A stretch of 64,000 bases of DNA from Dudresnaya verticillata (GCA_977862235.1 OZ374559.1:2666001-2730000), one strand, 5' to 3'; shown: positions 16,789 to 48,578, numbered from the stretch's first letter. Notes: generated by a model from the letters alone, not told the origin. Numbers and translations: made by a program.

Positions 16789-16900
16789 GGCCCCTTCCCA
16801 GGGCCGGTCCATCGATTGATAAATAAATAAAGGTGTGTGTGTGTGTGTTAATTTTGAGAGACCTTTATTAAAGAACAAGAGAGAAGCCCCTTAAGGGTGC

Positions 16901-21111: not shown

Positions 21112-24100
21112 GACGAACAAGATGACACGACAGGGGGTAAACGACAGTGGCAAGAACAACGAGTGGAAACAAACAGGATCAAGGGGAAAACGAGAGACGG
21201 AAACACCACGAAAGGCGAAGAAACCCCTCGCGAGCTGCCGGCGCAAATACGGCAGAGCCGCAGTTGCAGAGCTCCGCACAGTCACGCTAGAAGGAGGGGA
21301 AGAAGTAGAGACAAACAGCGAGGAAAACAAGCCTGGGGTTCCCAAAGGAGCAGAAAACGCCAGTAAGCAGAGGACTCTAATCCGGAGAAGAGCCTTGTTT
21401 CGCTTTTTGACGTTAATTTTGACACCGAGATATCTGGCAGTCGCTCGCAGCCAGTTCCATGCGTTGTCCCGCAATTCTTAAAACTGTCGAGCTTGGGCCT
21501 TCGCGATGTCTGCTGAGCAGGAGGATACAGCATTTCCCTACTGACCAAGTCATTCATTCCGATAGAAGCGGCCCGTTCTTCATAGACGGCGAGGGCCTTT
21601 CGCAAGGCGGCGGCCGATCAGCACACTTTGTGAGACATTCGTCGATCACGTTTCATCCGCCGCTCGAGTTTGGGCTGTAGAACATGGCGTGAGCAGGGGT
21701 GGAAACCTTCAAGCCAGTCGACAAACACCATGCTGAGATTGCTTTTTCTCTCTAGTTGCGGGTAGAGAACCAGGCGGGATTGCGTGCGTTCAAGTCTCCC
21801 GCAAGGAATTTCTTGCCGTGCGTGAGTGGTTTTAAATCATGCAGTTCCGCAGGCATCTCAACTGGGTTTGCTCGAGGGCTAATGTGTGTACCCATAATGT
21901 CTCCAAAGACTGAGATGTTCACGCATACAAGCCGGTACAGTGAATGTTGGACCGGGAGTTGTGGTTTGCTTTGTGTGTACCGTAGAGTAGCTCAAAGCTA
22001 GGGGCCGGCGACGATGGCCACGCCGCCAAGCGCCTTGTTCCTTGTTACTGCACGGGAGGCGGGGAGGAGGTCGCCAAGTCAAGCCAAGGGCCCCTTGTTC
22101 TTGCACGGGAGGCAGGGAGGGGGAATGTCGGGTGTGGAACCTGCCACACTCCCGAAGCCGTCGCTTGCATATAGCGTAGTATGCCGGTATGTTTCCCGGT
22201 TAAAATGCGTAGGTCGGGGTTGGCTGTGGTGGGGAGTTCCATGAAGTCAGGTGGAGTGAAGTGGAGTTTAATCCTGACATTCCAGGTGCCTACCAGCGTT
22301 AGGTTTCCATACTGTCATTTTTGGAAGATGCTTAGGGTATTGGTGTGCTTTCTTCTCCGAGGGCGATTCTGCGTGTCGTTCAACACTGTGGGGCGTGGAG
22401 TGGGGCGCAGTGTTGGAGTCCAGTATTTTCTGCAACACATACCCGTTTGGTTCCATCGGGTCCATCAGCTTCCAGTGCCTAGCTGAACGTTGCGGTGGGT
22501 TTCCAATGCAGTGCATTGGTTGACTGGGCGGCTGGAGTGACGATGTAGAAAGTGCACGGTCTCGCCCGTCTCGGTCGATTTCCTGTACGTACTTACATGC
22601 GTTCTGGCAGGCAGCAGCGAGTAAACGAGGTAGCGATTGGTACACATTCGCGGTGCGGGTGGGGAGTGAGCATAGTAATATCGGACCTGCGGTGAACAGC
22701 AGCAATTTTCGTCCTCGCGGCCCGAACTGCTTGGTGGGCCTACTTGTCTAGTTTAAGACCAGTGGTCGGCGTTATCCTGATCTCCAGTACGGTGGGGCGG
22801 TCGGTAGGCAGTATTGTAGTGTTGAAGGGCAGTGGGGCTTGTTGGGATGTCTGAATAGAGCACGTAGATTTCGCAGTCGTAACGCTGGCATGTATTCAGT
22901 GGGCTGACCGATGACGCGGTGGGAAACCTTGAGTTCAATGAGTCCATTTGAGCTACTAGATGTTGCATAGGCAGGGTTACCACCAACGTGCTTACTCGGC
23001 GACAGGGCTGAGAAATGTTCTGCAGATATGTTGACCAGTACTTGGAGCCATGCGGGAGGAAATGTGAAGCGCACCGGCGAAGTCGCGGAGGGTTTGTTCG
23101 GCTTTCTTCACGCGTACTACAGTTTCGGTTTTGCCGGTCCCACCCGGTGATAATTCCACTCTGAGTTATTTTCTTTCGCAGCGGTTTCCATGCGTTGTCG
23201 CGCCATTCGAAGAACCCAGCATATTGGTAGTACTCAATGTCTTGTTTGGAGAAGGGCTAAGCAGTTCCTTACTAACCAAGTCATTCCACTGGAAGCCGTC
23301 CATGGGCTGCAGATGGTGAGGGCCTTCCGCAAATCTTCTGTCTAGTCGACTTGTAGTAGGCAGCCATAGGCCAGCAGGTCCTGGGGATTGTGCTACAAAC
23401 TTCTCAGTAAGTTTGAGAGTCTGGAAGGGAAAGGAACGACCTAATCGATGCGAAAGTCGGGGTGGGAGTGGGAGCGAGCTACTTCTTGTAGTAATGCGGG
23501 ATCTCTTCGACAGTTTTTCTTTCACAGAACCGCTTCCTTTAACGTTACCAGTCGGGTATTGCCGCAGAATTTAAGCTCTGCCGAGAGTCGCAGTAATGGT
23601 ATCAGCGCGGGTTGAGGTGCTGGGACCCCCAGCGTGATTGCCCTCAGAAAAAGGGAGCGGAACGCCAGGCTTGCGACTCATGTCGAACCTTGGCAATTGA
23701 GGCAAAATTGGACGACGACAAGCGCGGTCCTGCCCGTACGGAAAAAAGGGTGTGATGCGGAACGAAGGGGTGCTGGGAGGCAGGATAGACGTCGGGTTGA
23801 GGGGGTATTGACCGGCCCAAACCAGTTTGAGTTTGGAAACTGGGTATGCAGAGAAGACAATAATTTCTTATTGCTTCACCCATGCCCAATGAATGGACGA
23901 CCGTTGCCAGTTGTTCAACAACAGATGTACAACAGATGTAGTCCCTGAGAGCTCCAGGTCTTGAAATGGGCGTGGGGCATCCGCGGTAGATTCAGCTTGG
24001 GACCAGTACTATAGGCATAACGCAGTGGAAGTCGGTTTAGTAGCTGGAGGATTGGCTGCTGAAGTCTTAGGGGCCTCGACAAGGCTGGAAGCGCACGGTA

Positions 24101-24879
24101 TATCGCCACATCCCGATGTGTGATTCTTGTCCGACCCGAATCCATTGTCGCGAGTTGCGTTCTTCGATAGGAGCGTAGGATTTCGATTCGCAAGTTGGAG
24201 TGAGGGTTGGCCTGATGATGTTCATTCGATCTGCCAGTCGGAGGGGGGCTTAACTTACTCTCGGCCTTGTCATGTTTGGCCTCGAAGATGGGGCGCCTGG
24301 GGTAGGGTACTTGCCGTCTTCTACATACGGCGGGGCATTTGGTGATGGAGGTACGGCCGGTGGACGCAGGGTTTTTTGGAAGAAAAACTTCGATGATGCT
24401 GCAGTGACTACAAGTGCAACGTCGAAGATTGCGTTCGGCTGTCAAAGCCCATTTCTCGACCAGTCGCAGATCCGAGCTGTAAGCATACGAACATTCTGTT
24501 TTTGTGACAAATTTCTGAGCCAAGTTTAACCAACGCGCCTTTTCCGATCTCCCGCCGCCGCCATCGACAAACCGAAACAGACGAATTCCCGCCACCGAAC
24601 ATCAAACCCGTCGGCTGCGTTGGCGAAGACCCTGTTCCCGCCTACGCCCCTCGCCCCATACAGTATAAACATTCGATCCGCCGCCCTCCCCTTCTCAAGC
24701 GCTCCACCCACGCCATCACTAGCGCCAACGCAACCGCCAACACCACCTCTACCCTTCGACGAAAGCCCACCCCACCATTCCCCCTCCGACCAACCCTTCC
24801 ACACTCCCCCAAACAAGCCATCTCCATGCATACTTGGCACTCGATCAACTCTGTCCCAGCCGCCCCCTCATCGACTGCA

Positions 24880-27472
24880 ATGAACCCGTCCGCAAATCAA
24901 CAGCAGCTGCGTATCTACACTGGCGCCAGCTTCCCGCCAGCCAGTCCTGCGATGCCAGAAGTTAACCCCGCACCGATGCCTTTGACGCAGCCTGCTCCAA
25001 TGCATAATGCACTTGCATTTCCCGCTCATCATGCTCACCACGCTCCGACCATGTTCATGTCGCCGTTCCACGGCGTCCCGCAAGCAATGCCGACTTCTTC
25101 TGCGCCGATTTTGACTCCGGCTCGGCAGCAAGCACCACAGCAAGCACCGCAGCAGTGGGCAACCGCCACAGCCTTCGCTTCAAGCTCTCAGTGGAAGCAG
25201 GCCGCAACCCCCGGTGCAACGACTGGGTCTTATCACGGACTCGTGCCGACGTCCGATCCCATGCAGGCGCAAGCCGGTTATGCCCATCCGTCAGCGTCAG
25301 CTGATTTCGGGGCTCCGACTTCCTGGAACATCTATTCTGGTTATGCTTACGCGAATGACGCAACTATTCTCCCTGTGCATGCTGCAGAGCACTATCAGAC
25401 AGATGCTTTTCCCGAGTGTTATCGCAGTGCCAATTCGGGTGAAGCGGCAACACCCTACAGTGTCTATGTCCCCATGCATCAGAACTATCAGAACTACAGC
25501 CTAAACGGCTTTGAAGGAAATGGCTACGGCACCGGAGAGGCCATGGTGGCATACGGTCCTGATCACTTCCAAGCCCAACAGGTCCCGCCCGTTTCTCAGC
25601 CGCTGGATGCCGTGACTGAGCCCATTGGCGCTACTTCAACATGTTCTAACCCCGGTTCAGGAGCTCACGTGTCAACGAACCAGGAGCCCTACCACGGTCT
25701 TCAAGTTCCCAAGGTGGACTTCTTCGGTAATGTCGCTGGTCAAGAGGGCAACTTCAACTGCAGAGGAGATGCAGACACAGGAACTTGCCGGTCTGCTGGC
25801 ATCTTCGAAGATAAGAGTGTGAGAGTAAGTCAGCAGAGTATGGCAACTTCACATGTGGCATTGGATACAAGCAAAGGAGATGTGAATGTTGACCCCAAAA
25901 ATATTTTGGAGCCAGTGCATCGAACCGCTGATATCCGTGGCAAGACTTCCGTTTCTGTGTCGGACAAGGGGATTGCAGACCACCATCAGCCGAGAGGTTT
26001 TGCTTCTGCAAAAAGGCAGCAGAAGAACCAGGCTCATACGAAACAATTAATGATGCCGGGAGCCTTGCAATTCGGGAACTTCATTGTAGAGAAGGTTCCT
26101 GGGTCCAGACCCTTCCGACGTGGGCGCTTTGATTCACCCACCTCACCTCTCTTGTACTTCAATCTGTCGCGGTGGCTGTTAACTGCCGTTTACTCTTCGA
26201 CCGTCGCCTTTCAGATGAGTTTTAGATAAGCCCCCTTACGGGGCTGTAGTCTTTCCTATGCATAAAGGTCTCCATCTTTTTCTTGATTTTTCAGCCTTCA
26301 AGGTTCATGGGCTTGGTAACAAAGAAACAGATTTGCGCACATCGCCTCTACGGAGCGCGAGCGCTTTCATATCTAACACAAGCACAGCCAGGAAGAGGGC
26401 TGGTAAGAAAAAGGTTAGAAAGGGAAAGCAGGGAATGAATTCTTTCTCTGCCGACGCAACTGCACCAGTCACTCACAAGAACAAGTCTCATATGCTTCCA
26501 GTCTCAGAGAAGAAAGAACGCGTTCAAGTTCCCTCTTCCGGTCAGAACTCTTCAAGACGTATCCAATCTACCTCGAGGCCTCCATCTGTACAGTCGGCAA
26601 AGGAGGCGAAGAGTTCATCTCCAGTTCATCTTAGGAAGCAGAACCTGAGAGTAGAAAGTGGCATCGATGCGGTTGAGCAATCCGCTCAACTTCCAGGAGA
26701 ATCTTGGGCTACGGTTGCCATGAAATTTCCTTCGGGTAACTTCAGTCAGTCTGTATCGAATACTGCTGCTGCGAAGGGTGGTAGAGACAAGGATATACCG
26801 AAGCTAGACACAATTTCGCCTAGAGTGGCCCGAGTTCCGGGAAAGAGAGAGCATCAGAAACACGGCACTGTTCCAGACTCCGGAGCGTCTGGTCAAATGA
26901 GCCGCTCGGAAATCGTGAGTGAAATGCTGGCGAGTCTCGACATGACTTCTAACATCATCCGCCAGAGCGCCAGAACACTTCCAAGTAGCACGGCTACTGC
27001 TTCGAATCCCGAGAAACATTCTGCACACAGCAATATTTCTGCCTCGTCGCAGAACGAAGTTCCGATTTCGCTGCAAGGAAAAGAAGAAACCAAGAGGGTC
27101 TCGGAAGTGGATCGAGCATATGTAGGGAAGAAGGGCAGTGACTATCGTATAAGCGACACGAAGAAAGGAAGTAATTTCTTGGCTTCAGATATGACTTCGA
27201 AGCTCTCCAAGGGTACTGGAAAAGTGGTCGCTCCTACCAAAAAGACCGCTGTAGCCGCGGACGAGAAGAACTGTAATGCGGGAGGGGGCCTGCCCTTGGG
27301 TAGAGAACCTCAGAATGACGGAGTTAACTCCACCGTTAGTACCCCCACGCCTGCTGCCGAAGATGGATCCCGCCTTGCGGAGAAGGACGCGCTTGCGCGG
27401 ACTGATGGGGATGGTTTCACTATTGTCCGACGAAAGAGGAAGCCAATGAGGAAGAGACATCTTAAAGCCTAA
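24880..27472 (+). pseudogene. Low-complexity protein copy B, interrupted by a retro-insertion
   Basis: ORFs 24826..26229 and 26258..27472 join into one 813-codon frame once 154 bp (insert plus one TSD) are removed. Copy A has the empty site (RGRFDFSAF). Confidence 0.7.
26135..26282 (+). mobile_element. 5'-truncated CRE-like insertion with 6-bp TSD
   Basis: TTGATT at 26129-26134 and 26283-26288. Encodes LTSLVLQSVAVAVN (compare LLSLVLQCVAVSVN). Ends GCCCCCTTACGGGGCT...ATAAAGGTCTCCATCT. Confidence 0.85.
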
Positions 27473-28386
27473 TTTTCACTTGGGAGAGAAGTAGAACTTT
27501 AATCATTCGTGAAAGAAGGCCTGGGATATGCCCTCAAGAAGAGGACAAATCGAGGCCACGACAGTGAATGTTCATGAGAGAGAGGGGTACTTTATTCGTC
27601 AGAGCGAGAGATATAGCGGTAATGTGGAGAACCTGTGAACCGAGCTTGGTGAAGAGGACATCGCGTTCCATTACTAGCGAGGTGCCCCGGCGAGCAAAAA
27701 TAAAGTCTGTAACATCCCGCCGACTAGCCTCGAAACCGGGACCGAGGGTTCCGTAATTGTCCGCTGCAAGGGGGTGGAAGTCGGCACCTAACGCGAGGCA
27801 AGCGCAGTTGACTTTGCAACGATTGCACCGTTCAGCAACCTGAAGAGCATGTCGGGGAACGCCCGGTATTGCAAACAGAATGGGGGCTGACGATCGTGAC
27901 GTCAAACATCTGGGGATGCGGAGAGAGGAAGGGGTGAGACGTAGAGGTCTAATAGCCGCTGCCGCTGTAAGCCCTGGTGGAAAGGGAACTCTCGAGGGGA
28001 TCGCGAAAGCCGTTATGGCGCGTCGTACTGACTTGTGACATTACCACTGTCCAATAGCTGCCATTAGGGCCCGGGGATGGCGCAAGCGACAATAGGTAGG
28101 GAATGTGTGAAAAGCTGGAAGGCTCGGAGAGGGGAGGACCGAGGGAGACTTGGAGACGAATCCCGGGCGTCGTGAGAAAACCAGCACTGTGTGCCCCCAC
28201 GACAACTTGCCGTCTTTGTGATTTGCCCGGTGTTGCAGTTGCGGAAGGTCCGGTTTATCCCGTGGTAAATTTAAGTTCATCGCCAACGTAGATATTGTTA
28301 AACTTTACTCAACTTGGGTTTGAGTGTGTCGAATTCGGAAGCTGGTAGAGCGTCGGATACCACTGCCAATATTATCTTAAGGAAGG

Positions 28387-29577
28387 CTAGGCTTCCAATG
28401 TGAGGCTATCCCTCTCCATCAATAACGATTTCGCAGCTTCGCCTCCATGAATCATGCTGGAAACATTTTCTATTCTCTCTACGGGGCGACTTTGCGCCCT
28501 TCGAACCCTACCATAAAGGTCCCCATCTCTCTCTATTCTCTCTATAACAAATGCTCGGGCGATATCCGGCTGGCCCGAGAAAGCCTGAAGTGCAAATGCG
28601 TATTGTCTCAATGCCTCGTTCCAGGAACTGCTTTCGAACGCAAAGTCACCGCAGGTGACCGCAGCACAACCAGTTCGATGGGCAAGCACCGGGTCTCCCG
28701 TCATGTTGTATCCTCGCTTGAATATTTCCATGGAAGCTCGAAGCAATTGATATAAGGCCGAATGTATGCTTTCGGGAAAGATACTGTCGACCTGGGAGAT
28801 AATGTAGGATAGCCTAGATGCGGTTGCTCCTGTCTGATTTGGAAATGATCGGCATCGGTATGCAGAATTTCGCAACAGCATCAAGATCACGAGAAACTGT
28901 CCGTACGCCAGCAAGATTTCAGCACAGCCGATGGTTTCGCAAAGCCCCGCCGGTATTGAATTTTGCAGAGACGCTAACCGCTGGCTCGCTGGCGATCGGA
29001 GAGAGAGAAAATGCATTCGAAGCACCTCCTCAAACTGAGCGGCAGTTTCTGGTCCAAGGCAGTTGAGCACTGCGCTAATCGGGAGCTCGTAAGTGGAATG
29101 TTCCGCCAAGGAAGAGGAGTTCGGCTGTTCCTGTTGCGCTTGAACTTGAGAAGAGCTATACTGCGGCATTGCCTGCCCAGTGCTGTAGACCTGTTCATCA
29201 ATGTCATACGTGATGTTGTTTTGATGCATATGGGGCTCTGACTTGTAGGGAGCCAATGACTCATGAGGTGCTGCGGACGGGTTCCACTGAGAGTCTGGAG
29301 CCATGGCTTCAATGATTGTCGAATGAGGCAACACCTGTTGCTGACCCAGAGTCCATGTCGATGCAGAAGAAGCCGGAACGTCGTTCGGGAAATCATGGCC
29401 TAGCTGCATAAGCACGGCCGGAGCCGCATGGTGTGGCAATGCAGTTGTGTGCTGCATTGGGTGCGGCATCCACAATAGCGTTGGTATGGAGTTGACTTCT
29501 TGCATCGCAGCGGCGGCTTGCGGGAAGCCGGCGCCAGGGTAGATGTACGGCTGCTGCTGATTTGCAGAGGGATGCAT
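28387..29577 (-). CDS. Hypothetical protein; N-terminus paralogous to copies A/B, with a different, probably helical C-terminus
   Basis: 396-aa ORF beginning MHPSANQQQPYIYPGAGFPQA. Upstream DNA is also similar to copies A/B. PISAVLNCLGPETAAQF recurs as a fragment in ORF 32083..32412. Confidence 0.65.
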   Translation of the reverse strand: MHPSANQQQPYIYPGAGFPQAAAAMQEVNSIPTLLWMPHPMQHTTALPHHAAPAVLMQLGHDFPNDVPASSASTWTLGQQQVLPHSTIIEAMAPDSQWNPSAAPHESLAPYKSEPHMHQNNITYDIDEQVYSTGQAMPQYSSSQVQAQQEQPNSSSLAEHSTYELPISAVLNCLGPETAAQFEEVLRMHFLSLRSPASQRLASLQNSIPAGLCETIGCAEILLAYGQFLVILMLLRNSAYRCRSFPNQTGATASRLSYIISQVDSIFPESIHSALYQLLRASMEIFKRGYNMTGDPVLAHRTGCAAVTCGDFAFESSSWNEALRQYAFALQAFSGQPDIARAFVIERIERDGDLYGRVRRAQSRPVERIENVSSMIHGGEAAKSLLMERDSLTLEA

Positions 29578-29835
29578 TGCAGTCGATAAGGGCGTAGTGG
29601 GGACCGCGTTGACCGAGCGCTGAGTCAGCGGGTAGATTGGTTGTTTGGGGAGTGGGTAGGTGTTGGTTGGAGGGAGAATTGAGGGGGTGGGCTTGCGCTG
29701 CAGGTGGCGTTGGGAGTTCGGTTGGCGCTAGTGAAGGTGTGGGTGGAGCGGTTGACGAGGAGCGGGTGTTCGGTGCGAACGGTTATATGGAGTGGGAGCG
29801 AGGGGCTTAGGCGGGAACACGGTCGTCTCCAATGA

Positions 29836-29888: not shown

Positions 29889-31704
29889 CCAATGAAGCTG
29901 CCGGGTTCGATGTTGCTCGGTGGCGGTAATTCGGTGTTCGGGTTGGGGGCGCCCGAAATGGGGAAGCTTGAAGTTTGTAAAGCCGTTTCGAGCAAGATTC
30001 CGTCCAATTGCATATCCTTCGAAGCTTACTGCCGGAAATCGATGTCCCGACGCATTCTTGCGGTCGACGATCACCACGGCTTTCCAGTCGCTCACGTTTG
30101 TTGAAGCAACAAACGAAACCCAAGAGAGACGCAGATATAGATGACAGACAGGTTCTGTCTAATACAACACAGCAGTCGTTGACCTTGGGCCGACCTCATC
30201 TGAACATATTCGCAAACTATGTGGATGAGGGGTTCCAGCTAGACTGGATTGTACCTCTGTGTGATTGAGAGCGGAGGAGAGGGAAACGTGGCTTTTCTCG
30301 GGAACGGATAGGAGCAGAGCAAAACAGAACCAAAACGCAATGCACACCTAGTGAAACCCAATAGCACGCCTTGAAGATATACATTCGTTGTTCCTCCTTC
30401 CAATGCGATAGTGTGCTGGCTCATAGGTCTTTGTTACCGATGCCGGTGCACTCAAAACCGTCCTATAAAGTTTAATATCACATAGTGAAAACAGTAACCA
30501 TAAGAGAGATGTACTTTATTCAGCGAGATGCCAGTAGCCCCATAAGGGGGCTTGGCAAAGATCAGGGCCTAGACAAGAGTCAAACAGCTTACGCCGATTA
30601 ATAGCCACGGCAGTAACTATATAGTTTATCTCCAGAAACCAAGAGAACAAGCACTTCAAAAGAGTACTTCCCCCTCTTTGTGCCGCCATTAATTGCCATA
30701 TCGCCATCACGAGTAACAGGCACTGCCTCAACTCGCCACTTGCAGACGACTCAAATTTTCCTTGGAGTACTAGTGCGAACGGGCCGCCACCTTTGCACTT
30801 TGATGCTAGCTTTCGCCACACGATACGTCTATCGCGCCTTCATATGGCCCTTTTCGAACCATGGCGAGGCACTTGTACGCCTTATACTGTGAAACATGAT
30901 GCTCAGAATCGAGCTACTGATTTTGCAGCGCACTCTATCCGATTAGTATGGTTGGGTACTGTTGCATGTCAGATTCATATCGGTACGGGTGAGACCTGTT
31001 GCATGTCAACTTCCTACCTGTGCTGATTAGTTGTAGATACACTTTCCCTTTGTAATGTTTAGGACTTAAGCGAGTACTCTACACTCTTCCCAATAATGGC
31101 AGACGATATGTGTCCGCTCCGAAGTAAAACCTTTCCCGTCTGTTTCCTGATACCGCTACCGTGATACCGTCAACCCCCTTTTCCAATATACGGTCCCTGC
31201 AACGCCCAATCGGCAAATTCGATGCCCAGCTCTTTCACTTGTGTATCTCTCAGTCCTCTCCTCTCCTTAGTGCCACATGACGGTGCAGAACCTGGACTCT
31301 TTTCCGGATAGAGCCCATAGGCCTGCACCAGCGCTCCCTGCAGAAAAGTGTTGTCAACGATCCCCGCCTCGTCTCCCTTCACCAGGTGGATCTCGCCGCT
31401 TGGTACGCAACACAGATGATCTTGCTCTTGAACAAAGGTCTCTCTCTCAGATAAATGAGAGACAACGTAGAATAGTCTTGATATGCTCGACCCACTCCCA
31501 CTTGAACGTGAACGGCTTCGGAGAGGGGGATCTATTTCTCAACTGCATCACCCACGATATACAGTCGTTGTTCCTCCTTCCCATGCAATAGTGTGCTGGC
31601 TCATAGGCCTTTTGTTGCCGATGCCGGTGCACTCAAAACCGTCCTATAAAGTTTAACATCACCCACGAGAGACACTCTCCATACGCGAGCAAGACATCAG
31701 AACA

Positions 31705-31871: not shown

Positions 31872-33192
31872 GGCATAAAATGGGGTTACGATGCTTCATC
31901 GGTGTTTTATAGTCCAAAATCACTAGCGAGTAGGTAATGTACATTCTATGGAGGGCCATATTCTTCTTTCAGCACGCAATCTTAGACTACAGCCTGTCGC
32001 TCAGTTTGGGGAGGAAATTGGTATCTACCTTTCTTTCGTCCCTCGACAGGAAACAACGGAAATTTTGACACATCCTTGCGCACTACCTGAAGAGAGAGAT
32101 GGGGACATGGTTCCCTATCGACCGAATATAGAGAGGGTAGATACGAATATTCTTGTCAAACTGAGCGACAGTTTCTGGTCCAAGAAAGGAGCGCACTGCA
32201 TTAATTGGGAAACCCCCGTCTAGTATGTCCGGGGTCGGAACATGAACGGTTTCCTCCAATAGCTCCTCGAAGATCATCTCCTGTACTCCTGAAGAAGATG
32301 CAGAAATTACCTGCGGGTTGCTCACTCTATCTCGATGTCTCTTTGCGTTGTCCCCACGTGCAGTGATTCTAGGGAATTGGCGGCTTACTCTTGAAGTATC
32401 ATACGAGCTCAAAACGTGCCCTTTTACGTGGTAGCTTTCTTCGCGTTCTCCATGGCGTTCTGTTCAATGGCCATCTATGAGCTTGATACAGTATTTGTAC
32501 GAGTTAGGGTGTGAAAGAAATGATGTAATCGAGGTTCCATTGCTTCAGTTGAAGCGCAAGTCGGTGGTTAGGGAGTGGGAGCAAACTGCTTCCTGTCTGA
32601 ATGCGAGATCTCTCGGCAGGGTTTCTTTCAAATAGTTGATAAACGGTGAAGCGGGGTCTGCAGAATGAAGATGGGTATTGGCAGTATAAAGATGGAACAG
32701 TAGTCGAAGTATAAAAGTAGCTTTGGATGCTGTGGATGGATACTTTGGGCAGAAATGGATTGCTTGTCGAATCAATAATATGGACTGCAGTCCGCCACAC
32801 AGAATCAATGCGACGTAAAAAAGTGATGGGTGTCGTCGTCAACTGTACTTTTCTTCTACAGTAAGAACTGCAGTGCTACGGTAACAGTAAACTAGCAACG
32901 AATGCATTCCAAAACATACCCGTGCTAGTTGAAACGATAACAAATAGTTCTTCAAGCCGTGAACGATTTCAAATACAGAAAGCATTTTCCAAGCTGCGCA
33001 AGCTTGTAGCAGTTCAAAGTTACACAAAGAGCCACTTCCTGAGATACTTCCAGTCGGGTCTTACCCCTGGATTCAGCTCTGCCAAGAGTCACAGTAGTGG
33101 ATTTGCGCAGGATGAGTTTATGGAACCCCCCACTGTGATTAACCTTAGAGAAACGGAAGTGCAACTGTACAGGCTTTTGACCGATATCGGAC

Positions 33193-33594
33193 AATGAAAA
33201 CATTAATTGTCCTACGGTCGTATGCATACTGATTCAATCATTCTACAGTCGTATGCATACTGATGAAATGGATCTACAGTCGTATTAATACTGCAGATAC
33301 TATTCTACGGTCGTATTCATGCTGACGAACCATGTTTCTGTTTTATGTAGTTGTATTCACAATGGTTCTCAGTGAGCACTTTCTTCTAACTTTATTCAAC
33401 GGTCGTTTTACGTTTTAGAGGCAGTCTTCGCCTGCCTATAAGTACCGCCTAGTTCTCTCTTGTTCTACCCTCTCAACAGGACAACATTTTATCTAGACAA
33501 CACAATCTGATCTACTCTGTTCTGTAAATCTACTGTTCCTCTGATACCGCTGCTACTGCCAACTTGCTACTGAGCCAAATACCATTCCTTTATT
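33193..33594 (+). repeat. 5' LTR (AAT...ATT)
   Basis: Direct repeat of 38065-38466; three substitutions seen by eye. Confidence 0.95.
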
Positions 33595-33607
33595 GTTATG
33601 GGCCCAG
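33595..33607 (+). promoter_or_regulatory. Primer-binding site, half-tRNAiMet (Hemivirus) type
   Basis: GTTATGGGCCCAG directly follows the LTR and matches the Drosophila copia-type PBS. Confidence 0.8.
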
Positions 33608-36600
33608 GCTCATCATCGGCGTATCTGCCGACTCGCCCAAGGTTTTCTTGGGATATCAAAAATGTTCCTTGGACAGATGGCAAAGGCAACCAAGAAGAGT
33701 ACTCACTATCTGTTTCTTTATGGAATGCTTTCCATAACAGGCTCCCAGACTCTAACTCAAACAAGATACCCACGGAACTTCGTGGTATAATGCTTCAGTC
33801 CCAGCTTTATGGAAGAGCAAAAGATCTATGCAAATCCATTCCCGATACTGAGATCCAATCTGCTACTGGCTCAGAAGCTGTGGTGAATGCTGTATACAAA
33901 CGAGATGCACTCTCGGTTGTCAGTGAAGTTTACCAAAACTTTATTGCCCTATTAAGTACCAAGCGCGGAACCACGGAGACATACAAAAACTTCGAATCAA
34001 GATTCGACGCTCAAGTTTCCAGATTCAATGCTGGCTCCAGTACAACAAAGCTCCCAGAAGCCCTTACTGCTTTTATGCTACTTGCAAATTCTGCCGTGGA
34101 TAACGGTCAAAGAGTTTCTGTTCTTGCAGCAGCTTCGAACAACACAAATATAGCTCCTACAGCTACAACTGATGATTTTCTCGATTCAGTTTCATACGAG
34201 AAAGTAGCTTCTGTTCTAAGGCAGTGTGACCAAGTCATGACTGAGAATATTCGTCCCCTGTCTGCAAATGCTGTGAACACTCAGTTCAGAAGACCGATCT
34301 TCCCAAGGAATCGCAGAAGGCTTACACCTGATCAGCTTGCAGATCTTAAAAGCCGCAGCAAATGTCGTAAGTGTCACAAATTCGGACACTGGCACTCTGA
34401 TCACACAGATGACGGTAAACTCAAGCCTGGAGTCAAGTCTACTGATAATCCTGCTCCTTCTGATGCAAAACCGAACACACAACCACCGAAGAAAACCATG
34501 ACCTTCAACATGGGTCATCTACTCGATTCCCACAATGAGATAAGCGAAGACTTTACAGGCCCCTTACTTGATGACGGTGGTCCGTACAGTGGTCTAGGGA
34601 TGTCCGAGTTTATGATACTGCAGCCCATTATCCTACCGGACTGGGAAGGCAATCTGGACCCTATACCCCAACAGCTTCAGTCTTGTGCCTTTTGGCAATA
34701 CGGTGCAGGGCAACACTCCAGTGAGGCAAGGAGAATTCTCGGATCGGTCACTTTAATGGCTCGCACTGATAAGAACAACCTGGTGTCTATCCGACACCTA
34801 ATCATTGAAGGCTCCTCGCAATGGATTATCGGCCGTAATGTCACGAAGCATTGTGACATTGTTCATGTTGGCGATAACAGGCTCGTTATGCCAACATCTG
34901 AAGATTCAATCGGTCTCCAAGACAATGGATTCCACAGTTACATACCCTATAACGTATTTCTACCGAACAGTTCCGACCTGTCATCCCGTGTCACGAACAA
35001 GTTCTATTGTGCCACTGCTCAGATCAACCAAAACCATGACACTCGTCCCTTTGGAGACATCAAGAAGATTGTTGATAAGGTCCATCAACACGTCTGTGGA
35101 CACTCTTCTTATTCTGATATCAAGATATTGCTCCAGCGAAACAAAATTTGGAATGCTGAAGTACAGAAATATTTGTCCCGTGTCCTGGATAGATGCTCAA
35201 GTTGTTTAACTACTTCTCAACCGAAAGACACCCGGAAGGTCTCACTAAGCTCCATGAGCAGGAACTTTAACGACGTTGTATGCATTGATCATTTCCACCT
35301 TGATATGAACCGCGTGTTTCATCTCATGGACTCTGCTTCAAGATATTCGACCGGCGATGTTGTAAGCACTATGACTATGACGGAAGCTATTAATTGTTTT
35401 GAATCTCTATGGATAACACCATTCTGGACCCCCAAATGTGTTCTATTTGACCAAGCGTTCAACAATACCGAGTTCATACATTATCTGAAAAGTCAAGACA
35501 TTGAAACTCGCCCTATACCTCCGCGTCGCCACAACAAAAATGTCATTGAATCTAAGCACAGAGTTATTCGAGATATCTACCTACGCCTGAAAGAAGGATG
35601 TACAAATGACTCTGCTGAGCACCAAAGACTCCTAGTGCAGCAGGCACTACGAATATCAAATGATCTGTACGGAAATGACGTATGTTCTGCTCATGAGTTG
35701 GCGAAAGGCTATACGAGACCTATAACATACGGAGAATTTCCTGCACAAGTTCCTGAAGAAATTTCCAAGGCCCACGATGACCTCATGGCTATGCGAAAAT
35801 TAACCCGCATCCTTCACTCCAAGTCAACTGCTGATATACCATTCAATGTTGGAGATACCGTACAAGTTTATATCAAAGAACAAAATGCCAAGCGCGGCAA
35901 GTGGTCATCTCCGAAGGTGATTTTATCGTTCGATAAAACGTCTGGAACCATTTCAGTTCCTGGAAAACGTGGACGCCAAGTCCAAGCAGCTGTTGAAGAT
36001 GTCCGTCCTGCCCTACCTGTGGATACACTAGGCAGTTCCATCCAAGAAGCAATTGATGCTCTCTCCAAAAGTCTGGATGACAGCATTGATGAGCTCTGTT
36101 CTAAAGAAGATGTGGCATCAAATGAAGAGCTTGAGACTACCACTATAGAGGAGGTGGGATACGAAAACGATGACGGAGATATTCTCAGCTCACACCCCGA
36201 CGTTGGTGACGTCATTGATGTATATTGGCCCCTCGACGATATGTTCTACACTGGAAAAGTGGCATCAATTAACGAAGATGACAACCAGTACAACATTGAT
36301 TACAATGATGGTGACAAAGAATGTCTCAAGTTATCGGATGAGACCTGGCGCTATAGCTCGGATGAAGCAATAGCAACCAACAACGTACAAATATCAGATC
36401 AAACGCTCACAAGTTCTCTGCAAGAGGTTCTTGGGTCGTATACTCTTGCCTTCGGTCACAAAGATTTTATGCGCTACCAGACTCAAGGGCTACCAACGTT
36501 TCCATTGTTAAATGCTTACAAAAAAGAAGAAGAGGCCTTTAAGAAAACAGTCAAGATGGTCCATGCTTCTGATATCCCAAAGCATGCAAATGTCATCACA

Positions 36601-38040
36601 AGCCATGTGATATACAAAGTTAAGAATAATGACGATGGCTCGATGAAAATGAAAGCACGCATAGCGCCACATGGTAACAAGGACAAAGAACGCTTTCAGT
36701 TGAAAACAGACTCTTCAACCTGTCCGCCAACTGGTATTCGCATTTTGCTGTCCCTCGCTGCTCAGTTCAAGTGGTTCTTGGCCAAGATCGATTTTAAGAG
36801 CGCGTTTCTGCAAACAGGAGAAGCAAAGCGAGACGTCTATGTCGTTCCGCCACGAGAAAGCGACGACAAGCAGCACTATTGGTTGTTGCTGACTGCAGCA
36901 TATGGTCTTGTGAACGCCAATGCTAAGTGGCAGGAACAAAGTGACAATTTCTTAACATCGATCGGTCTCCGCCAACTCGTTTATGTTCCACAGTTGTTTT
37001 ACAAGAAGGACGCAATTGGTTCATTGCAACTCGTTGCTGTCAAAATTGTGGACGATGTACTCTTTGCTGGTGACCAGTCAACTGTTCGGTCAACTATTGG
37101 AAAGATACAGGAGCGCTATGAGCTCGGGACAATTGTTTACGGTCCGGGCTCGTTCCTTTTCTTTGGCCTCCACATTGCTCAAGATGATGAATGCTCTATA
37201 AGGATACAAGCTGATGAAAAGTTGGAAAACTTAAACTGCTACCCCATTGATCGACAAAGAAGAAAGCAAGGAGATGAAGTTCTAAATGCTGTCGAAACTA
37301 GTTCCTTCCGATCAGTCAACAGCTCGATTGGATGGCTTGGAATTGCCGCGTCGCCATTCTGTGCCTTCTATGCCAGTCATTTACAGCAGAAGGTACCTCA
37401 AACCACTGTACACGATATGATCTCTCAAATCAACTCTTTGAGACTGCTGCAAAAACTTGGAAGTACCATCATGTACAAGCGACCAGCAGATAAGAAAGAG
37501 TACCCTCTATCCGTTCTGATGTTTGCAGACGCTAGTCGAAGTTCTGACTATGGCCAGCTTGGTTTCATATCAGGTCTACTTATCGGTGACTTCGAAATGG
37601 GTTCTATATTCCATACACTTTCATGGTGTTCACACAAGTCAAAGAGACCAGTCAAATCTATTGGAGCTGCAGAAATACTAGCGTCTGGTGAAGCAATCGA
37701 TGAAGGCAAAGTTCTGGTTAGTGCCTACAAGACGCTTCTCGACGTTGAAGTTGACCTGATGGTCGCTCTTGACTCCAAGGATTTATATGAGACTTTATCA
37801 ACCTGCCGCAACTCCATTGATCGCTCTATTCGGGCAGATGTCAGCGTCATTCGATATGAGTTTGAGACGCACAAAGTGAATCGCATCATCTGGATTCCTG
37901 GCAAGACCAACCTTGCAGATCCACTCACTAAGGCTAACAGCCCGCTTGTTCAACCCTTACAGCTGACAATGTTTTCTGGAGAGCTCAGCATGAACTTCAC
38001 AGATAATCTCTTTCGCAACTCAAACCAGTTCACTGGTTAG
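33598..38040 (+). CDS. Copia Gag-Pol polyprotein (1480 aa) with an extra Tudor-like domain
   Basis: Knuckle CRKCHKFGHWHSDH; protease LLDDGG; integrase H..H..CSSC, CIDHF, FDQ, IESKH; RT KARIAPHG, DFKSAFLQ, YGL, IVDD; RNase H FADAS, AAE, DSK, LADPLTK. Confidence 0.95.
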   Translation: MGPGSSSAYLPTRPRFSWDIKNVPWTDGKGNQEEYSLSVSLWNAFHNRLPDSNSNKIPTELRGIMLQSQLYGRAKDLCKSIPDTEIQSATGSEAVVNAVYKRDALSVVSEVYQNFIALLSTKRGTTETYKNFESRFDAQVSRFNAGSSTTKLPEALTAFMLLANSAVDNGQRVSVLAAASNNTNIAPTATTDDFLDSVSYEKVASVLRQCDQVMTENIRPLSANAVNTQFRRPIFPRNRRRLTPDQLADLKSRSKCRKCHKFGHWHSDHTDDGKLKPGVKSTDNPAPSDAKPNTQPPKKTMTFNMGHLLDSHNEISEDFTGPLLDDGGPYSGLGMSEFMILQPIILPDWEGNLDPIPQQLQSCAFWQYGAGQHSSEARRILGSVTLMARTDKNNLVSIRHLIIEGSSQWIIGRNVTKHCDIVHVGDNRLVMPTSEDSIGLQDNGFHSYIPYNVFLPNSSDLSSRVTNKFYCATAQINQNHDTRPFGDIKKIVDKVHQHVCGHSSYSDIKILLQRNKIWNAEVQKYLSRVLDRCSSCLTTSQPKDTRKVSLSSMSRNFNDVVCIDHFHLDMNRVFHLMDSASRYSTGDVVSTMTMTEAINCFESLWITPFWTPKCVLFDQAFNNTEFIHYLKSQDIETRPIPPRRHNKNVIESKHRVIRDIYLRLKEGCTNDSAEHQRLLVQQALRISNDLYGNDVCSAHELAKGYTRPITYGEFPAQVPEEISKAHDDLMAMRKLTRILHSKSTADIPFNVGDTVQVYIKEQNAKRGKWSSPKVILSFDKTSGTISVPGKRGRQVQAAVEDVRPALPVDTLGSSIQEAIDALSKSLDDSIDELCSKEDVASNEELETTTIEEVGYENDDGDILSSHPDVGDVIDVYWPLDDMFYTGKVASINEDDNQYNIDYNDGDKECLKLSDETWRYSSDEAIATNNVQISDQTLTSSLQEVLGSYTLAFGHKDFMRYQTQGLPTFPLLNAYKKEEEAFKKTVKMVHASDIPKHANVITSHVIYKVKNNDDGSMKMKARIAPHGNKDKERFQLKTDSSTCPPTGIRILLSLAAQFKWFLAKIDFKSAFLQTGEAKRDVYVVPPRESDDKQHYWLLLTAAYGLVNANAKWQEQSDNFLTSIGLRQLVYVPQLFYKKDAIGSLQLVAVKIVDDVLFAGDQSTVRSTIGKIQERYELGTIVYGPGSFLFFGLHIAQDDECSIRIQADEKLENLNCYPIDRQRRKQGDEVLNAVETSSFRSVNSSIGWLGIAASPFCAFYASHLQQKVPQTTVHDMISQINSLRLLQKLGSTIMYKRPADKKEYPLSVLMFADASRSSDYGQLGFISGLLIGDFEMGSIFHTLSWCSHKSKRPVKSIGAAEILASGEAIDEGKVLVSAYKTLLDVEVDLMVALDSKDLYETLSTCRNSIDRSIRADVSVIRYEFETHKVNRIIWIPGKTNLADPLTKANSPLVQPLQLTMFSGELSMNFTDNLFRNSNQFTG

Positions 38041-38048
38041 ACTCAGCT

Positions 38049-38064
38049 AAGAAAGCGGGAGGAG
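38049..38064 (+). promoter_or_regulatory. Polypurine tract
   Basis: AAGAAAGCGGGAGGAG lies immediately before the 3' LTR. Confidence 0.85.
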
Positions 38065-38466
38065 AATGAAAACATTAATTGTCCTACGGTCGTATGCATA
38101 CTGATTCAATCATTCTACAGTCGTATGAATACTGATGAAATGGATCTACAGTCGTATTAATACTGCAGATACTATTCTACGGTCGTATTCATGCTGACGA
38201 ACCATGTTTCTGTTTTATGTAGTTGTATTCACAATGGTTCTCAGTGAGCACTTTCTTCTAACTTTATTCAACGGTCGTTTTACGTTTTAGAGGCAGTCTT
38301 CGCCTGCCTATAAGTACCGCCTAGTTCTCTCTTGTTCTACCCTCTCAACAGGACAACATTTTATCTACACAACACAATCTGATCTACTCTGTTCTGTAAA
38401 TCTACTGTTCCTCTGATACCGCTGCTACTGCCAACTTGCTACTGATCCAAATACCATTCCTTTATT
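38065..38466 (+). repeat. 3' LTR (AAT...ATT)
   Basis: Direct repeat of 33193-33594, followed by TSD CGGAC. Confidence 0.95.
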
Positions 38467-38619
38467 CGGACCTTGGCAATTGGGAAACAATCGGAAGACG
38501 ATAAACGTGACCCTGTCCGTACGGTGAACAATGAGCAAGGATAAATGGCGGGATGCTGGGCGGCAGGATATGTGTCAAAGACGTATACCTAAAGTTGTTG
38601 AAACACAGGAGCGCACGGA

Positions 38620-38682
38620 ATGATATTAAACTTCATAGGACGGTTTTGAGTTTTTGAGCACCGGCATCGGCAACAAAGGCCT
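38620..38682 (-). mobile_element. ~63-bp retroelement 3'-end insertion; related copies at 30425-30481 and 31605-31662 (+)
   Basis: AGGCCTTTGTTGCCGATGCCGGTGC...CCTAT(A/G)AAGTTTAA(T/C)ATCA, flanked by CACGGA at 38614-38619 and 38683-38688. Confidence 0.65.
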
Positions 38683-39275: not shown

Positions 39276-40319
39276 CTATGGCATACGAAGTTCTTGTCCA
39301 GGGTAGATAAGGTCTGGGTTTTTGATACAATCATTGATTTGGACGATTTCCATGTACCGACTTCCGCTGCCAAGCTGCGCCTGTGCAATCTTCCAAAGCG
39401 TGTCGCCAGATTTCACGGTGTAACGATGCGCACTGTCTTCAAGACTGCTTTTCGCTTTCTCATGGATCTCTTTCAATTGTTGAAGGGCGGCGTCGGTCCA
39501 ATCCAGACAACTGGAAGAAATCCACTTTTCTTCGTAGGCCTTGATGGCCTTTCGTTGCTTTTCTTTTGAGAGCCCATTGGAACGGCGGACAACACTTTCC
39601 AGTGCAGAAACGTTGTGTTCGCCGAAAGCGATGGCACCGTCCCGCCTGGCAAACTCAACAATCTCGACAATGTTATTGCCAATTTCTCTGGGGACTTCGA
39701 GGCCGGTTCGCAAGTACGGGACGTCCGCCGCGGAGAAGAATTTCTGAAACAGGAAGTTGAAGGAATCCTCTCGTTTGCGGCCGAGTATAACGGGGAGGTC
39801 AGTCTCAGCAATGCCGCTTTCTCCTGACCAAGCGTGATGGATTATGTCCGCGATGTCTCCAGAAGCTTTATGTACAGTGGTGCTTTGGGAGATGTTCTTG
39901 TCGTGCAAGATGTATTTTTCGAACAACGTTGGTTCGAGGCGTCCGACCTCGTGGCTATTCAGGATGGAGTTTTTGGGTAACAGGGCGACGAAGCGCAGCT
40001 TGACATTGGTGTCGGGGGCGACATGCAGGAAGGCGCGGAGCTCTGTGACGCGCCAGGCGCTCTTGAAGAAGTCCGGGGTGAGCAGGAACACTGCGACGCC
40101 AGTGGGACGGGTGTGTAGGACTGCGGTGAGGATTGAGACGAGCTTGCCTTGCAGAGCGGTCTCGTCGAAGAAGATTGAGGGTTCTGCGTCGGCCTCTTCG
40201 GCGTGGGCTTCGAGGACATCTTTGGTAGCGCGCGCAAGCTCGCGTGTGGTGAAGCCGGCGGGGAGGGTTTCTGAGCCGTGGAAGCTTAGGAAGACGTCGA
40301 TGCGGTGGTCTGGGCCCAT
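39276..40319 (-). CDS. TIR domain - helical (death-fold-like) region - LysM protein
   Basis: TIR motifs IDVFLSFHG, IFFDETAL and VAVFLLTPDFFKSAWRVTELRAF. C-terminal LysM YTVKSGDTLWKIA..LGSG.RY.EI...N..IKNPDLIYPGQELRMP. Intact, intronless 347-aa ORF. Confidence 0.9.
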   Translation of the reverse strand: MGPDHRIDVFLSFHGSETLPAGFTTRELARATKDVLEAHAEEADAEPSIFFDETALQGKLVSILTAVLHTRPTGVAVFLLTPDFFKSAWRVTELRAFLHVAPDTNVKLRFVALLPKNSILNSHEVGRLEPTLFEKYILHDKNISQSTTVHKASGDIADIIHHAWSGESGIAETDLPVILGRKREDSFNFLFQKFFSAADVPYLRTGLEVPREIGNNIVEIVEFARRDGAIAFGEHNVSALESVVRRSNGLSKEKQRKAIKAYEEKWISSSCLDWTDAALQQLKEIHEKAKSSLEDSAHRYTVKSGDTLWKIAQAQLGSGSRYMEIVQINDCIKNPDLIYPGQELRMP

Positions 40320-42076
40320 CGTGTGGGGGGGGGGGGGGGGGGGGGGCGGAATGGCGTTGGGGATGGGGGCGAGGTGTCGGTCGGGGGTGGGCGTTTAAGC
40401 AGAAGAGGTTGTGGGGACATGGGGGTGGAGGGTCAGGGATGAAATGGTGGGTGCACAGTTGTGCAGCAATGTAGAAGGTGATTGCGATTCGAAACGTTTA
40501 ACAAGAATGGGATTGTTCCCGAAAAGGGAAACAGCCGTCGTCATAAAATACGTCGGAGTGAGCTGTGTTGCCTTCCAACGCGGTTGGTAGCTGAGTTTAA
40601 GCCGCAATATCGATACGAACATTGTGCTGATAGTTCAAATACTGTACAGTACAGCCGCAACGGTAGCTCTGCGGGGGCCCATGATTTGGGCTTGCAGAAG
40701 CCCATTCTTGCACACGTCACGTCGGTAACCATGCACGTGGGCCCTTGCGCGCATATGCCCCATGCTGTGCTGGCCGGAGCGCAGCTTCGAAGCTCCCTCT
40801 GCTTTCGAGACTTGAACGACATGTTCGATTATTCTGCTTGAACAATAGTTTACGTTCAGACCAGCCTATCCTTGGAAAGCGATGTTGATGTTGAATTCTC
40901 TAGTGCACCTGTAGGGCTCCAGCGCGGACGACTAGGGCCCTTTCGCAAGCGTACCGCCTCGAGACATTGTAGAGAACAGGGGGTGCTGTGTTGGGACGGG
41001 GAAGGCTGCGCCTGGGAAGCAGCAGGCCCCCTTATCCAGACCTAGACGTGACAGCTGACATAGTGCCTAGCCATTTTGCTTAGTTGATGCTTTAGTCTGT
41101 ATCTAGAGTACGAGAGCACTGGTCATGAAGGATGTATGTAGTTGCTCTACGAAGACACCTCCCTCGTTCCATAACTGCCTCTATCAATCTGAATATCCCG
41201 ACGTGCTTAAATGTTGCCATGCTTAGGACACATTGACTAGATCACTACGTTGCGGTGCTCCTCAACTTTAGAAAAGCAAACTTTACCAACACTGCGTAGC
41301 AGTCAAAATTACTCTGTCAAGCACAACAATGATTATTACAACAGAAACGTTCTTGGAACAAGGGCAGCATGTTACTTGCCTATCAGCCATCGTCGCTCGC
41401 ACAAGACCACGTTAAACAAACATTAAAATCAAGCATCACATTACCCATCCATCTTGAGCACGCCCTGTGTTACAAATTCCCTTGATGGTTGGCCACTCCC
41501 GCTCTCTATCTGACACATCTTACTATTCATGTAATACGCTTCACTACAGCTTTGACACGTCAAAGTCCCTATTCCTTCCTATTAATGTTGAATGCAATGC
41601 AATGCACGGTTCCTGTTGAATCAAGGTCTCACATTCTCTCCCTTTCTTCCACGATTCTTACACGAAAGCAGGCCTTTGCAGCCCAAGCCGACGCACTCTA
41701 AATCCTGTCCTGTAAAGTTTATCATCACACGAAAGCAGTAGAACGAATACATGGGTATTTTAATTACCACGCACAAGGGATATCAGCTCAGGTCTTGGAC
41801 GCCACAGGCATTATCCTCCGCGAGGAACACAAAATTAGGAGAAGCGTGTAGCTGGACCTATAGACCATAAAAAGGTCAAGAATAACGACAAGATCAAGAA
41901 ACTCCGGACAAAACCAAGCCTCCAAGAGCAGTTGAAGCCTTTCGCTTCGTGTCCAGAACAGAATTGCGATTCCGCAACAGCTGTGCAGATGGCAGGCACG
42001 GCAGTGGGAGCCAGTTTCAGATAGCACACATCGATGAGTTTTGGAGCATCTGATGAACAGAAGCAAATTATATATA

Positions 42077-42475: not shown

Positions 42476-42688
42476 AGAGAGAGAGGAGACCTTTATTAAA
42501 GAACAAGAGAGAAGCCCCTTAAGGGGGCTTAGGATTCAGAGCTACCATAAAGAGGCGGAGGAGCAAGCTTGCGGCGGTTGACACTCACCGCGACGCATTG
42601 GAGAACTAAAGAGAGTAAACGAGTAGTGAGGCGAAGTTTCTCCGTAGACGGAGAGGTCCCGCGCTTGCTGGCAATGAAATTAGCAATA
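42476..42688 (-). mobile_element. 5'-truncated copy (3' ~200 bp) of the two-ORF element with (TC)n tail
   Basis: Near-identical to 16856-17060. Confidence 0.9.
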
Positions 42689-47300: not shown

Positions 47301-48578
47301 TGGGGATAGCGAGCTCTGCCGAGCGTCCTGAAGCAGCAACAACCCGATACAACATCTACCCGAAAGGGGTTTCTACGGGTCTGTGCAACTTTTAGCACTA
47401 TATTTGGCACTTCACTGTTTGGGGCTGAACTATATGGAGTTACCAAATTTAGAGGTTCTGGAGGGGATATAAGCACTACAGTCCAGCTTAGACAACCCCT
47501 CCGTCTCCCCTAAGTTCTTTCCTTCGTTCTCCCGCCCACCCACCCTTCATCTTTCTCGACTTCAAGTCCTTCCTTCGTTTCCATAATTTCTGTTGAGCAT
47601 TCTTGCTGTTTGTTGTTAGTCATTGCATTCGACTACTCTTCTTCTGCAACAATAAAAGTAGTCATTTCCTTTTCAAGGCCTGGCAATCTATCGCCGTCGT
47701 CTTGCCCTTCAGGTAGGTCCTTGAGTAGACCGGGGGATCTACTACCGCGTTTCGAACCCTACCGTAAAGTTCCCCATCTCTCTTTATTCCAAAGATTTAA
47801 AGAAAGCCCGGTAGGGCGACAAGAAAAGCTATGATCTTGAGCACCCGCCACCAAACAAAAATGGAGCAAAAAGCACGACCAACTGATGACATCTCGATTT
47901 TACAGGCAGTCATGCTTTCAATTTGTTTCATGAACGAGGATCTCCTTTCCCGCAAGCAAAACAGTAGCAGTTCCCATCATGGGGAACGGGGAACAAGAAG
48001 TAATGGTTCGACACAGGCCTTGTCGATATTTGTAAGAGAATATTCACCAACGCGCTGAAAAGTACAAATCCTTCCATGCTCCACTCAGCCCCTCAGCCAG
48101 ACGATAGACGAGACGAGCTCCCTGTTGGTTTTCACCAAAACGATCTTGTTGGGATGGGAACATCGAGGGGTGCATCATCACAAGGGCTTGCAGTGCAAGC
48201 CGCTCCGTAGAAATGTTGAAGATGGCTCACTGGGGCAGTGTGATGGCGGTGGCGTTGGTGGCGGGGCGTGCGTGCCGCATGGACAGCCAGACAAGACCGG
48301 TCAGGGGGCTCCGCCGAGTGCTCACCGGCAGCGTAGAAAACAAAAAACATCCAATACCGCACGATTCACAACTCGCGCGTGCAATTCAGTCATTGCCATT
48401 CACCGCCGCCTCCACGCTCCCACCTTCCCGCTCCGCCTCGTCCCCACCCGCGCCGGTGGGGGCGGCCTCCCCTCCGCCCAGCGGCCGCCCCCGCCGCTAT
48501 AAAGCCGCACGCACACCGCCGCGCACCGCACCACCACCTACGAACCCCACCCCCAACTCTCCCCTACCACCCGCCACG

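Follow-up and report, generated by a model that had tools for sequence, protein, structure and literature searches.

In chromoviruses, a chromodomain lying behind the SH3-like module of the integrase directs integration (Gao et al. 2008, as cited in PMC12477314), and this is the only one of the cases compared here with experimental support for targeting. In diatom CoDi-A elements, which are Ty1/Copia, the integrase ends in a putative chromodomain (Llorens et al. 2009, PMC2774666), a Royal-family reader thought to have been captured independently of chromoviruses. Gypsy-10_Ec32 of Ectocarpus, together with a homologue from Tribonema, is presented by its authors as the first reported transposable element (TE) with a Tudor domain (PMC12477816, 2025). 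Copia insertion guided by H2A.Z is reviewed, along with chromodomain targeting, in PMC12477314. Among host proteins, the Tudor domain of Arabidopsis RDM15 is reported to bind H3K4me1 at 1.47 µM (PMC8184781; PDB 7DE9) and H4K20me1 at 22.9 µM, 15-fold more weakly, and the authors attribute mark specificity to the surrounding residues (PMC8184781). Tudors of the RDM15/PDS5C type serve siRNA-directed silencing in plants (PMC8184781; PDS5 preprint); PMC13269885 and the PDS5 preprint likewise concern host Tudors.

We describe here a Ty1/Copia retrotransposon that bears a Tudor domain inside Pol, located in the window (the whole 64-kb stretch of DNA that was analysed). To our knowledge, where the choice of insertion site by Copia elements has been explained, it depends on a host cofactor or on a histone variant such as H2A.Z, not on a reader of the element's own. 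Like Gypsy-10_Ec32, the element is an LTR retrotransposon with a Tudor at the integrase C-terminus, but Gypsy-10_Ec32 is a stramenopile Ty3/Gypsy element whose Tudor ends Pol, whereas here the domain precedes the reverse transcriptase (RT). It shares with CoDi-A the combination of Copia and a Royal-family reader behind the integrase; membership in CoDi-A was rejected because the reader is a Tudor instead of a chromodomain. With chromoviruses it shares a reader behind the SH3-like module. Chromoviruses, however, have Gypsy domain order and RT and a chromodomain that reads repressive marks, as opposed to a predicted monomethyl-lysine pocket with arginine at position -2, and membership was again rejected (RVT_2, Copia order, no chromodomain match). 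The element likely works like a chromovirus, by analogy, but is not one. The CoDi-A chromodomain and the Tudor-bearing Gypsy are precedents that the initial annotation of this DNA, which compared the element with chromoviruses, did not name. A literature search, with supplements, Repbase and most subscription papers outside its scope, found no Tudor-bearing Copia element, and the word "tudor" is absent from the main text of the Bostrychia preprint; the supplementary TE libraries for Ectocarpus and Bostrychia could hold an annotation of the family.

Structure of the Ty1/Copia element

The retrotransposon at 33193-38466 is intact and young, as judged from its single frame, LTRs, target duplication, primer-binding site (PBS), polypurine tract (PPT) and readable catalytic motifs (Table 1). 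Direct LTRs together with the PBS, PPT and target-site duplication identify an LTR retrotransposon, and the order protease-integrase-RT-RNase H with a Copia-type RT (Pfam RVT_2, aa 999-1206, E 1.8e-19) places it in Ty1/Copia, which bears out the class named in the initial annotation. The uninterrupted frame (33574-38040) encodes 1488 aa from stop to stop, and its first ATG, at 33598, sits inside the PBS. The assignment of the PBS to initiator tRNA-Met is our assumption, taken from Drosophila copia. No match to Pfam rve was found in this copy; relatives gave weak matches.

Table 1. Features of the element (positions in the window)
Feature	Position	Strand	Basis or remark
Left target-site duplication, CGGAC	33188..33192	+	Identical five bases at 38467-38471; a 6-bp reading is also possible
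5' LTR, 402 bp, termini AATG...TATT	33193..33594	+	3 mismatches against 3' LTR
LTR ends, AATG and TATT	33193-33196, 33591-33594, 38065-38068, 38463-38466		
Primer-binding site, internal initiator-tRNA-Met type	33595..33607	+	Read from sequence
Single gag-pol ORF: Gag, protease, integrase, Tudor, RT, RNase H	33598..38040	+	Translation, motifs, Pfam
Gag knuckle, C-X2-C-X4-H-X4-H	34363-34404	+	Motif
Protease, LLDDG	34564-34578	+	Motif
Integrase zinc-binding domain and core	35041..35733	+	Motifs read from translation
Integrase HH	35083-35103	+	
Integrase CC	35194-35205	+	
Integrase D, D, E motifs	35281, 35443, 35542	+	
Integrase C-terminal SH3-like barrel, basic, RGKW	35857..36009	+	AlphaFold2 and family alignment
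Helix (aa 819-848) followed by disordered, acidic linker (aa 849-874)	36028..36195	+	AlphaFold2
Tudor domain, RDM15/PDS5C (PF21743) type, aa 877-927	36202..36354	+	Pfam, PDB match, model
Cage codons W885, Y892, Y910	36226, 36247, 36301	+	
Acid codons D912, D914, E916, E923	36307, 36313, 36319, 36340	+	
Putative protease site between integrase and RT, 3' of Tudor	36370..36393	+	Semi-conserved motif, inferred
Reverse transcriptase (K[IV]VDD) and RNase H (ADPLTK)	36568..38013	+	Pfam RVT_2, motifs
Polypurine tract	38049..38064	+	15/16 purines, immediately 5' of 3' LTR
3' LTR, 402 bp	38065..38466	+	Pairs with 5' LTR
Right target-site duplication	38467..38471	+	Same bases as 33188..33192

The LTRs lack the usual (not universal) termini TG...CA. 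The termini AATG...TATT are fixed by the target duplication and by contigs with other flanks, and are a departure within Copia that gives no ground for exclusion. Both ends of the element were confirmed, since a contig from run X2 carries different DNA 5' of 33193 and one from run X3 carries different DNA 3' of 38466. These ends resemble unprocessed retroviral ends, which would imply joining without a terminal CA. Two related loci (L002 and L007) have the same PBS 11-mer upstream of their pol match, and likewise no CA ahead of it. The insertion site is an older dispersed repeat, of which a paralogue at ~23548-23787 aligns across the empty site.

The host is likely a red alga, an assignment drawn from one relative with a species name, from Gracilariopsis chorda (see below), and from the best DNA matches to the element, which include marine metagenomes; no RNA data set was among the matches listed. 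An assembly artefact was ruled out by the marine-metagenome contig from run X2, which spans 35780-36480 unbroken with 11 differences and no gaps. Runs X1, X2 and X4 show 0 differences within the Tudor against 14 listed over 701 bases, numbers too few for a claim of selection; the depth in run X1 (~1400) was not taken as copy number.

Several motifs depart from their usual form across the family. The final H of the Gag knuckle is present in 28/28 matches among 55 rows, the protease reads D-D-G instead of D-[ST]-G in 34/34 matches, and the RT has K-x-V-D-D instead of YVDD (37042-37056 in this copy).

The Tudor domain and the integrase SH3-like barrel

The initial annotation had described a Tudor of MSH6/PDS5 type, in frame after an acidic linker at the integrase C-terminus. 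The translation of 36202-36354 (plus strand) is exactly as quoted there, and both the frame and the linker, in which 9 of 26 residues are D/E, were confirmed. The domain does lie behind the integrase, but it does not sit directly on the core, since the SH3-like barrel, a long helix and the linker intervene. When searched as a 51-aa segment, it matched the Pfam PTM/DIR17-like Tudor model (PF21743; 28.1 bits, cut-off 27.2, E 1.7e-6) and the LBR Tudor model (PF09465; 23.0 bits, cut-off 22); in longer sequence context PF21743 scored 25.5 and 21.8 bits, under its cut-off. No chromodomain model in Pfam matches the element. The best phmmer match in the PDB was 7de9_A, the RDM15/PDS5C Tudor in complex with an H3K4me1 peptide (E 1e-7, ungapped over 52 aa; 36% identity).

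An AlphaFold2 model of the Tudor built with 47 sequences has a pLDDT of 88.9 and five strands. Foldseek ranked 7de9_A first (E 2.9e-5, rmsd 0.7 Å over 52 columns) as the sole match with E ≤ 0.001, the runner-up having E 2.8e-3. The predicted structure is thus a five-stranded barrel that superposes on 7DE9 with a W/Y/Y aromatic cage, the fold and cage for which the initial annotation had suggested structure prediction. A search of the ESM Atlas returned Tudor-clan look-alikes only, with low recognition values. We conclude that these residues form a genuine Tudor domain of the RDM15/PDS5C type.

An SH3-like barrel is already present in the integrase, which makes the Tudor an additional domain. 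In a 217-aa AlphaFold2 model, the barrel (aa 762-812) is a separate beta domain with pLDDT >90, 64 residues upstream of the Tudor, and is followed by a 30-residue helix and the disordered acidic linker (pLDDT <50). The barrel was present in 56/56 family rows, with G-x-W and R invariant, and was detectable in several distant relatives; one relative (P0041) gave a weak match to Pfam SH3_11 (E 0.031). A sequence search of the barrel against the PDB gave no match.

The initial annotation had named a generic integrase SH3-like fold as the result that would overturn the Tudor assignment, and profile comparison did not bring it about. That the segment is only a second or duplicated SH3-like DNA-binding barrel resembling a Tudor is largely refuted, and we regard it as very improbable. 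The opening strands of the two barrels are indeed alike (VGD-x-V-x-V-Y), and hhalign relates them with 55% probability at 18% identity; the Tudor, however, matches plant-like host Tudors with 99.6% probability at 41% identity, whereas the SH3-like barrel matches them with 0.4%. The two are also of opposite charge (4 K/R versus 13 D/E in the Tudor, 10 K/R versus 4 D/E in the barrel), and the cage and its acids are kept in the Tudor only. The acidity of the Tudor fits a basic histone tail as its ligand, and does not fit DNA.

Conservation and origin of the domain

Relatives were picked on RT-RNase H alone (aa 960-1480), so that the survey was not biased toward the Tudor. From 7985 candidates scored, 64 proteins were retained at E ≤ 1e-20, comprising 55 close family members and 9 distant ones (25-35% identity); a relative from Gracilariopsis chorda is 55% identical over RT-RNase H. 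The Tudor was found in 47 of the 55 close relatives, in the same position, 53-112 aa beyond the SH3-like barrel, and was absent from the remaining 8 and from all 9 distant relatives. Absence from sister copies, which would have spoken against the initial annotation, is therefore not what the survey returned, and the lineage-specific gain that it proposed agrees with the missing domain in distant relatives, from which we take the Tudor to have been gained in this lineage. Among 25 metagenome loci retrieved, 14 cover the whole region from the SH3-like barrel to RT; the Tudor is present in 13 of those, several of which are decayed copies. Two distant relatives (P0064 and P0065) seem, on inspection by eye, to have a second small beta barrel just before RT, with no match to the Tudor profile.

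Mean identity to the query over the 47 relatives was 0.48 for the Tudor and 0.52 for the SH3-like barrel, as compared with 0.12 for the linker and 0.21 for the post-Tudor stretch; for RT it was 0.58 (46 relatives). These data bear on whether the Tudor could be a neutral passenger that came from a host transcript and has no role in the element. Its absence from 8 close relatives and its degeneration in another would fit such a passenger. The domain is nevertheless held in frame and in the same place in 47 relatives with RT-RNase H identity down to 47%, and conservation reaches 90% or more at 10 of its 51 columns, but at none of the 26 columns of the neighbouring linker. On this contrast between Tudor and linker we consider the passenger reading refuted, with hardly any probability left to it.

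In an RT tree of 64 rows, from which P0063 was omitted because its RT is cut short, the 8 Tudor-less elements form one clade nested among Tudor-bearing ones. A more careful tree of 37 rows, from which 27 of the 64 first-tree rows were left out, includes 7 of the 8, again as one clade (support 100/99). Tudor-bearing rows were monophyletic in 8% of bootstrap trees, and the AU test does not reject their monophyly (p 0.33). Judged from these sequences, the domain would have been gained once and probably then lost once, the alternative being a gain after the split. Since a whole clade of 8 members does without it, and since the cage tryptophan is missing from one relative (P0035), the Tudor is dispensable for persistence. 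In members of the Tudor-less clade (P0033, P0038, P0039, P0041, P0042, P0045, P0046 and P0054), its place is taken by an acidic, proline-rich segment of low complexity and comparable length, in which several of them share short motifs.

For the source of the domain, HMMER was run over 1.84 billion representatives, giving 1243 proteins at E ≤ 0.001, of which the best 150 were examined; these are mostly many-repeat proteins, and single-Tudor donors may rank lower. A word-index search with just the Tudor region gave one candidate and no match, an outcome set by the reach of the index that says nothing about absence. After TE fragments, the top scorers among the matches listed were stand-alone proteins with 3-4 tandem Tudors and basic tails, whose best repeats reached about 80-87 bits on the family Tudor profile, as high as family members. 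The best repeats of plant-like PDS5-type Tudors followed at 54-73 bits among the same matches. Five of the tandem-Tudor proteins (P0097, P0102, P0107, P0244 and P0245) are 230-350 aa long and consist only of 3-4 RDM15-type Tudors and a basic tail; they resemble the family Tudors in profile score, and no TE domain was found in them (the last two by precomputed Pfam). Such proteins might read chromatin multivalently, and the TE domain might have come from them or given rise to them. In a tree of Tudor domains (131 rows, 68 columns) they are interspersed with the TE Tudors, and neither donor nor direction emerges from it. As to the MSH6/PDS5 type in the initial annotation, the PDS5C part holds, cage included, whereas with a red-algal host the domain is unlikely to have come from MSH6, because Monroe et al. 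(10.1101/2024.10.15.618488) report no MSH6-Tudor in any red alga.

Predicted ligand and possible targeting of integration

In RDM15, a land-plant host chromatin protein shown to bind H3K4me1, W616, Y623 and Y641 form the cage, D643 and D645 hold the protons of monomethyl-lysine, and E647 and Q654 contact H3R2 (Niu et al. 2021, PMC8184781). The ungapped alignment places these at W885, Y892, Y910, D912, D914, E916 and E923. The spacing fits exactly and six of the seven residues are identical, the seventh being Q to E, so that the element has the W/Y/Y cage and both aspartates for monomethyl-lysine and is a predicted reader. Counts at the seven positions over 47 rows were W 46, Y/F 47, Y 47, D 47, D/E 42, E 45 and E 45. 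In the H3R2 pocket, then, the equivalent of E647 is kept and the Q654 position is E in 45/47 rows. The full cage is present in 46/47 rows, and the cage with both acids in 41/47. Note that this alignment consists of the query and 46 relatives and leaves out P0035, with which the cage count becomes 46/48; the degenerate Tudor of P0035 was missed by a single-sequence search and found by profile. From these residues, the Tudor likely reads a monomethylated histone and steers the insertion of new copies.

The mechanism we favour, with moderate confidence, is that the Tudor recognises and binds the tail of a monomethylated histone, H3K4me1 being the likeliest mark, and in this way anchors the integration complex on nucleosomes so marked. 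A protease cut at about aa 936 would leave the Tudor as the last domain of the mature integrase, carried on the helix and the flexible acidic linker. W885, Y892 and Y910 would cage the methyl group while D912 and D914 hold the two protons of monomethyl-lysine, and E916 and E923 would hold the arginine two residues before the lysine, as RDM15 does with H3K4me1 and H3R2. Several Tudor copies per intasome might add avidity and so bias insertion toward marked chromatin. A single capture from a host chromatin protein, close to the root of the family, would have brought in the domain, and one subclade would have lost it or never gained it. As for the cut, the motif hydrophobic-x-[AS]-[NS]-x-[VI]-x-L at aa 933-940 is semi-conserved in Tudor-bearing and Tudor-less relatives, a similar one occurs at the end of Gag, and we take it to resemble Ty1 protease sites; it is likely the integrase/RT cut that would leave the Tudor on the integrase. 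Targeting is further supported by the position of the Tudor, which matches that of the integration-directing chromodomains of chromoviruses.

The single insertion seen here counts against H3K4me1 as the target, lying as it does in an older repeat of a TE-rich window and not in a gene body; land plants place H3K4me1 in gene bodies. The distribution of the mark differs between lineages (10.1101/2025.06.06.658275), and a literature search found no red-algal H3K4me1 map. The mark may also differ from H3K4me1, because RDM15 binds H4K20me1 too and surrounding residues set specificity. The Tudor could therefore be a working methyl-lysine reader of another target (H4K20me1, H3K27me1, H3K9me1 or a methylated non-histone factor) that directs insertion elsewhere, possibly to repeats. 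Besides the 22.9 µM binding of H4K20me1 by RDM15 and the nesting in an old repeat, the E at the Q654 position and the next fold matches, which read other marks (e.g. PHF19 with H3K36me3), point this way; we still hold it to be unlikely, given that the H3R2 residues are conserved along with the monomethyl-lysine ones and that 7DE9 is far ahead of other structures in the fold search.

Binding might instead leave the choice of site untouched, the Tudor contacting chromatin or a methylated host protein for integration efficiency, nuclear retention or competition with host Tudor readers that act in silencing. RDM15/PDS5C-type Tudors do act in siRNA-directed silencing in plants, and the close stand-alone multi-Tudor proteins are possible targets of such competition. 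A single domain in cis to the integrase, made at Pol levels, would however be a poor decoy, and it occupies the position of known targeting modules, so that we rate a role of this kind as quite improbable. The fullest form of the targeting mechanism, in which a large red-algal Copia lineage captured an H3K4me1 reader as found on land-plant PDS5C and MSH6 and aims its integrase with it, we put forward tentatively, at slightly less than an even chance.

Should the Tudor prove to read H3K4me1, reader-guided integration would extend beyond repressive marks, this would be another independent capture of a reader at the integrase C-terminus, and the domain could serve as a compact, transferable unit with which to steer integrases. 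In the fullest form, the element would find its targets by reading H3K4me1 directly, with the Tudor-less sister clade as a natural control, and its insertions would show what this mark labels in red algae. The domain has 51 residues, a close solved template and a prediction at residue level (H3K4me1 and H3R2), and its ~47 natural variants, the degenerate one and the Tudor-less sister clade lend themselves to a comparative insertion-site test in red-algal genomes.

Elsewhere in the window, long ORFs at 1059-2384, 8362-10263, 39276-40394, 48108-49268 and 59544-61133 contain TIR, Hint, LysM, Spondin_N and GH18 plus CBM5/12 domains. Two long ORFs with RVT_1, at 11239-14763 (plus strand) and 16901-19687 (minus strand), are probably non-LTR retrotransposons. 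The end of the second coincides with one of three copies (98-99%) of a ~200-bp repeat, at 16858-17060, 42486-42688 and 52964-53158, which are possibly 3' fragments or a non-autonomous partner. The stretch 20514-21360 recurs inverted at 63154-64000 (98%). ORFs without a Pfam match at 3813-5880 and 24359-27514 form an inverted duplicate (82-95% identity), of which 29336-29832 is a third, more diverged partial copy. A dispersed repeat of 60-107 bp occurs in four copies on both strands (30376-30481, 31556-31662, 38621-38682 and 41670-41728) and possibly represents the ends of a small DNA transposon.
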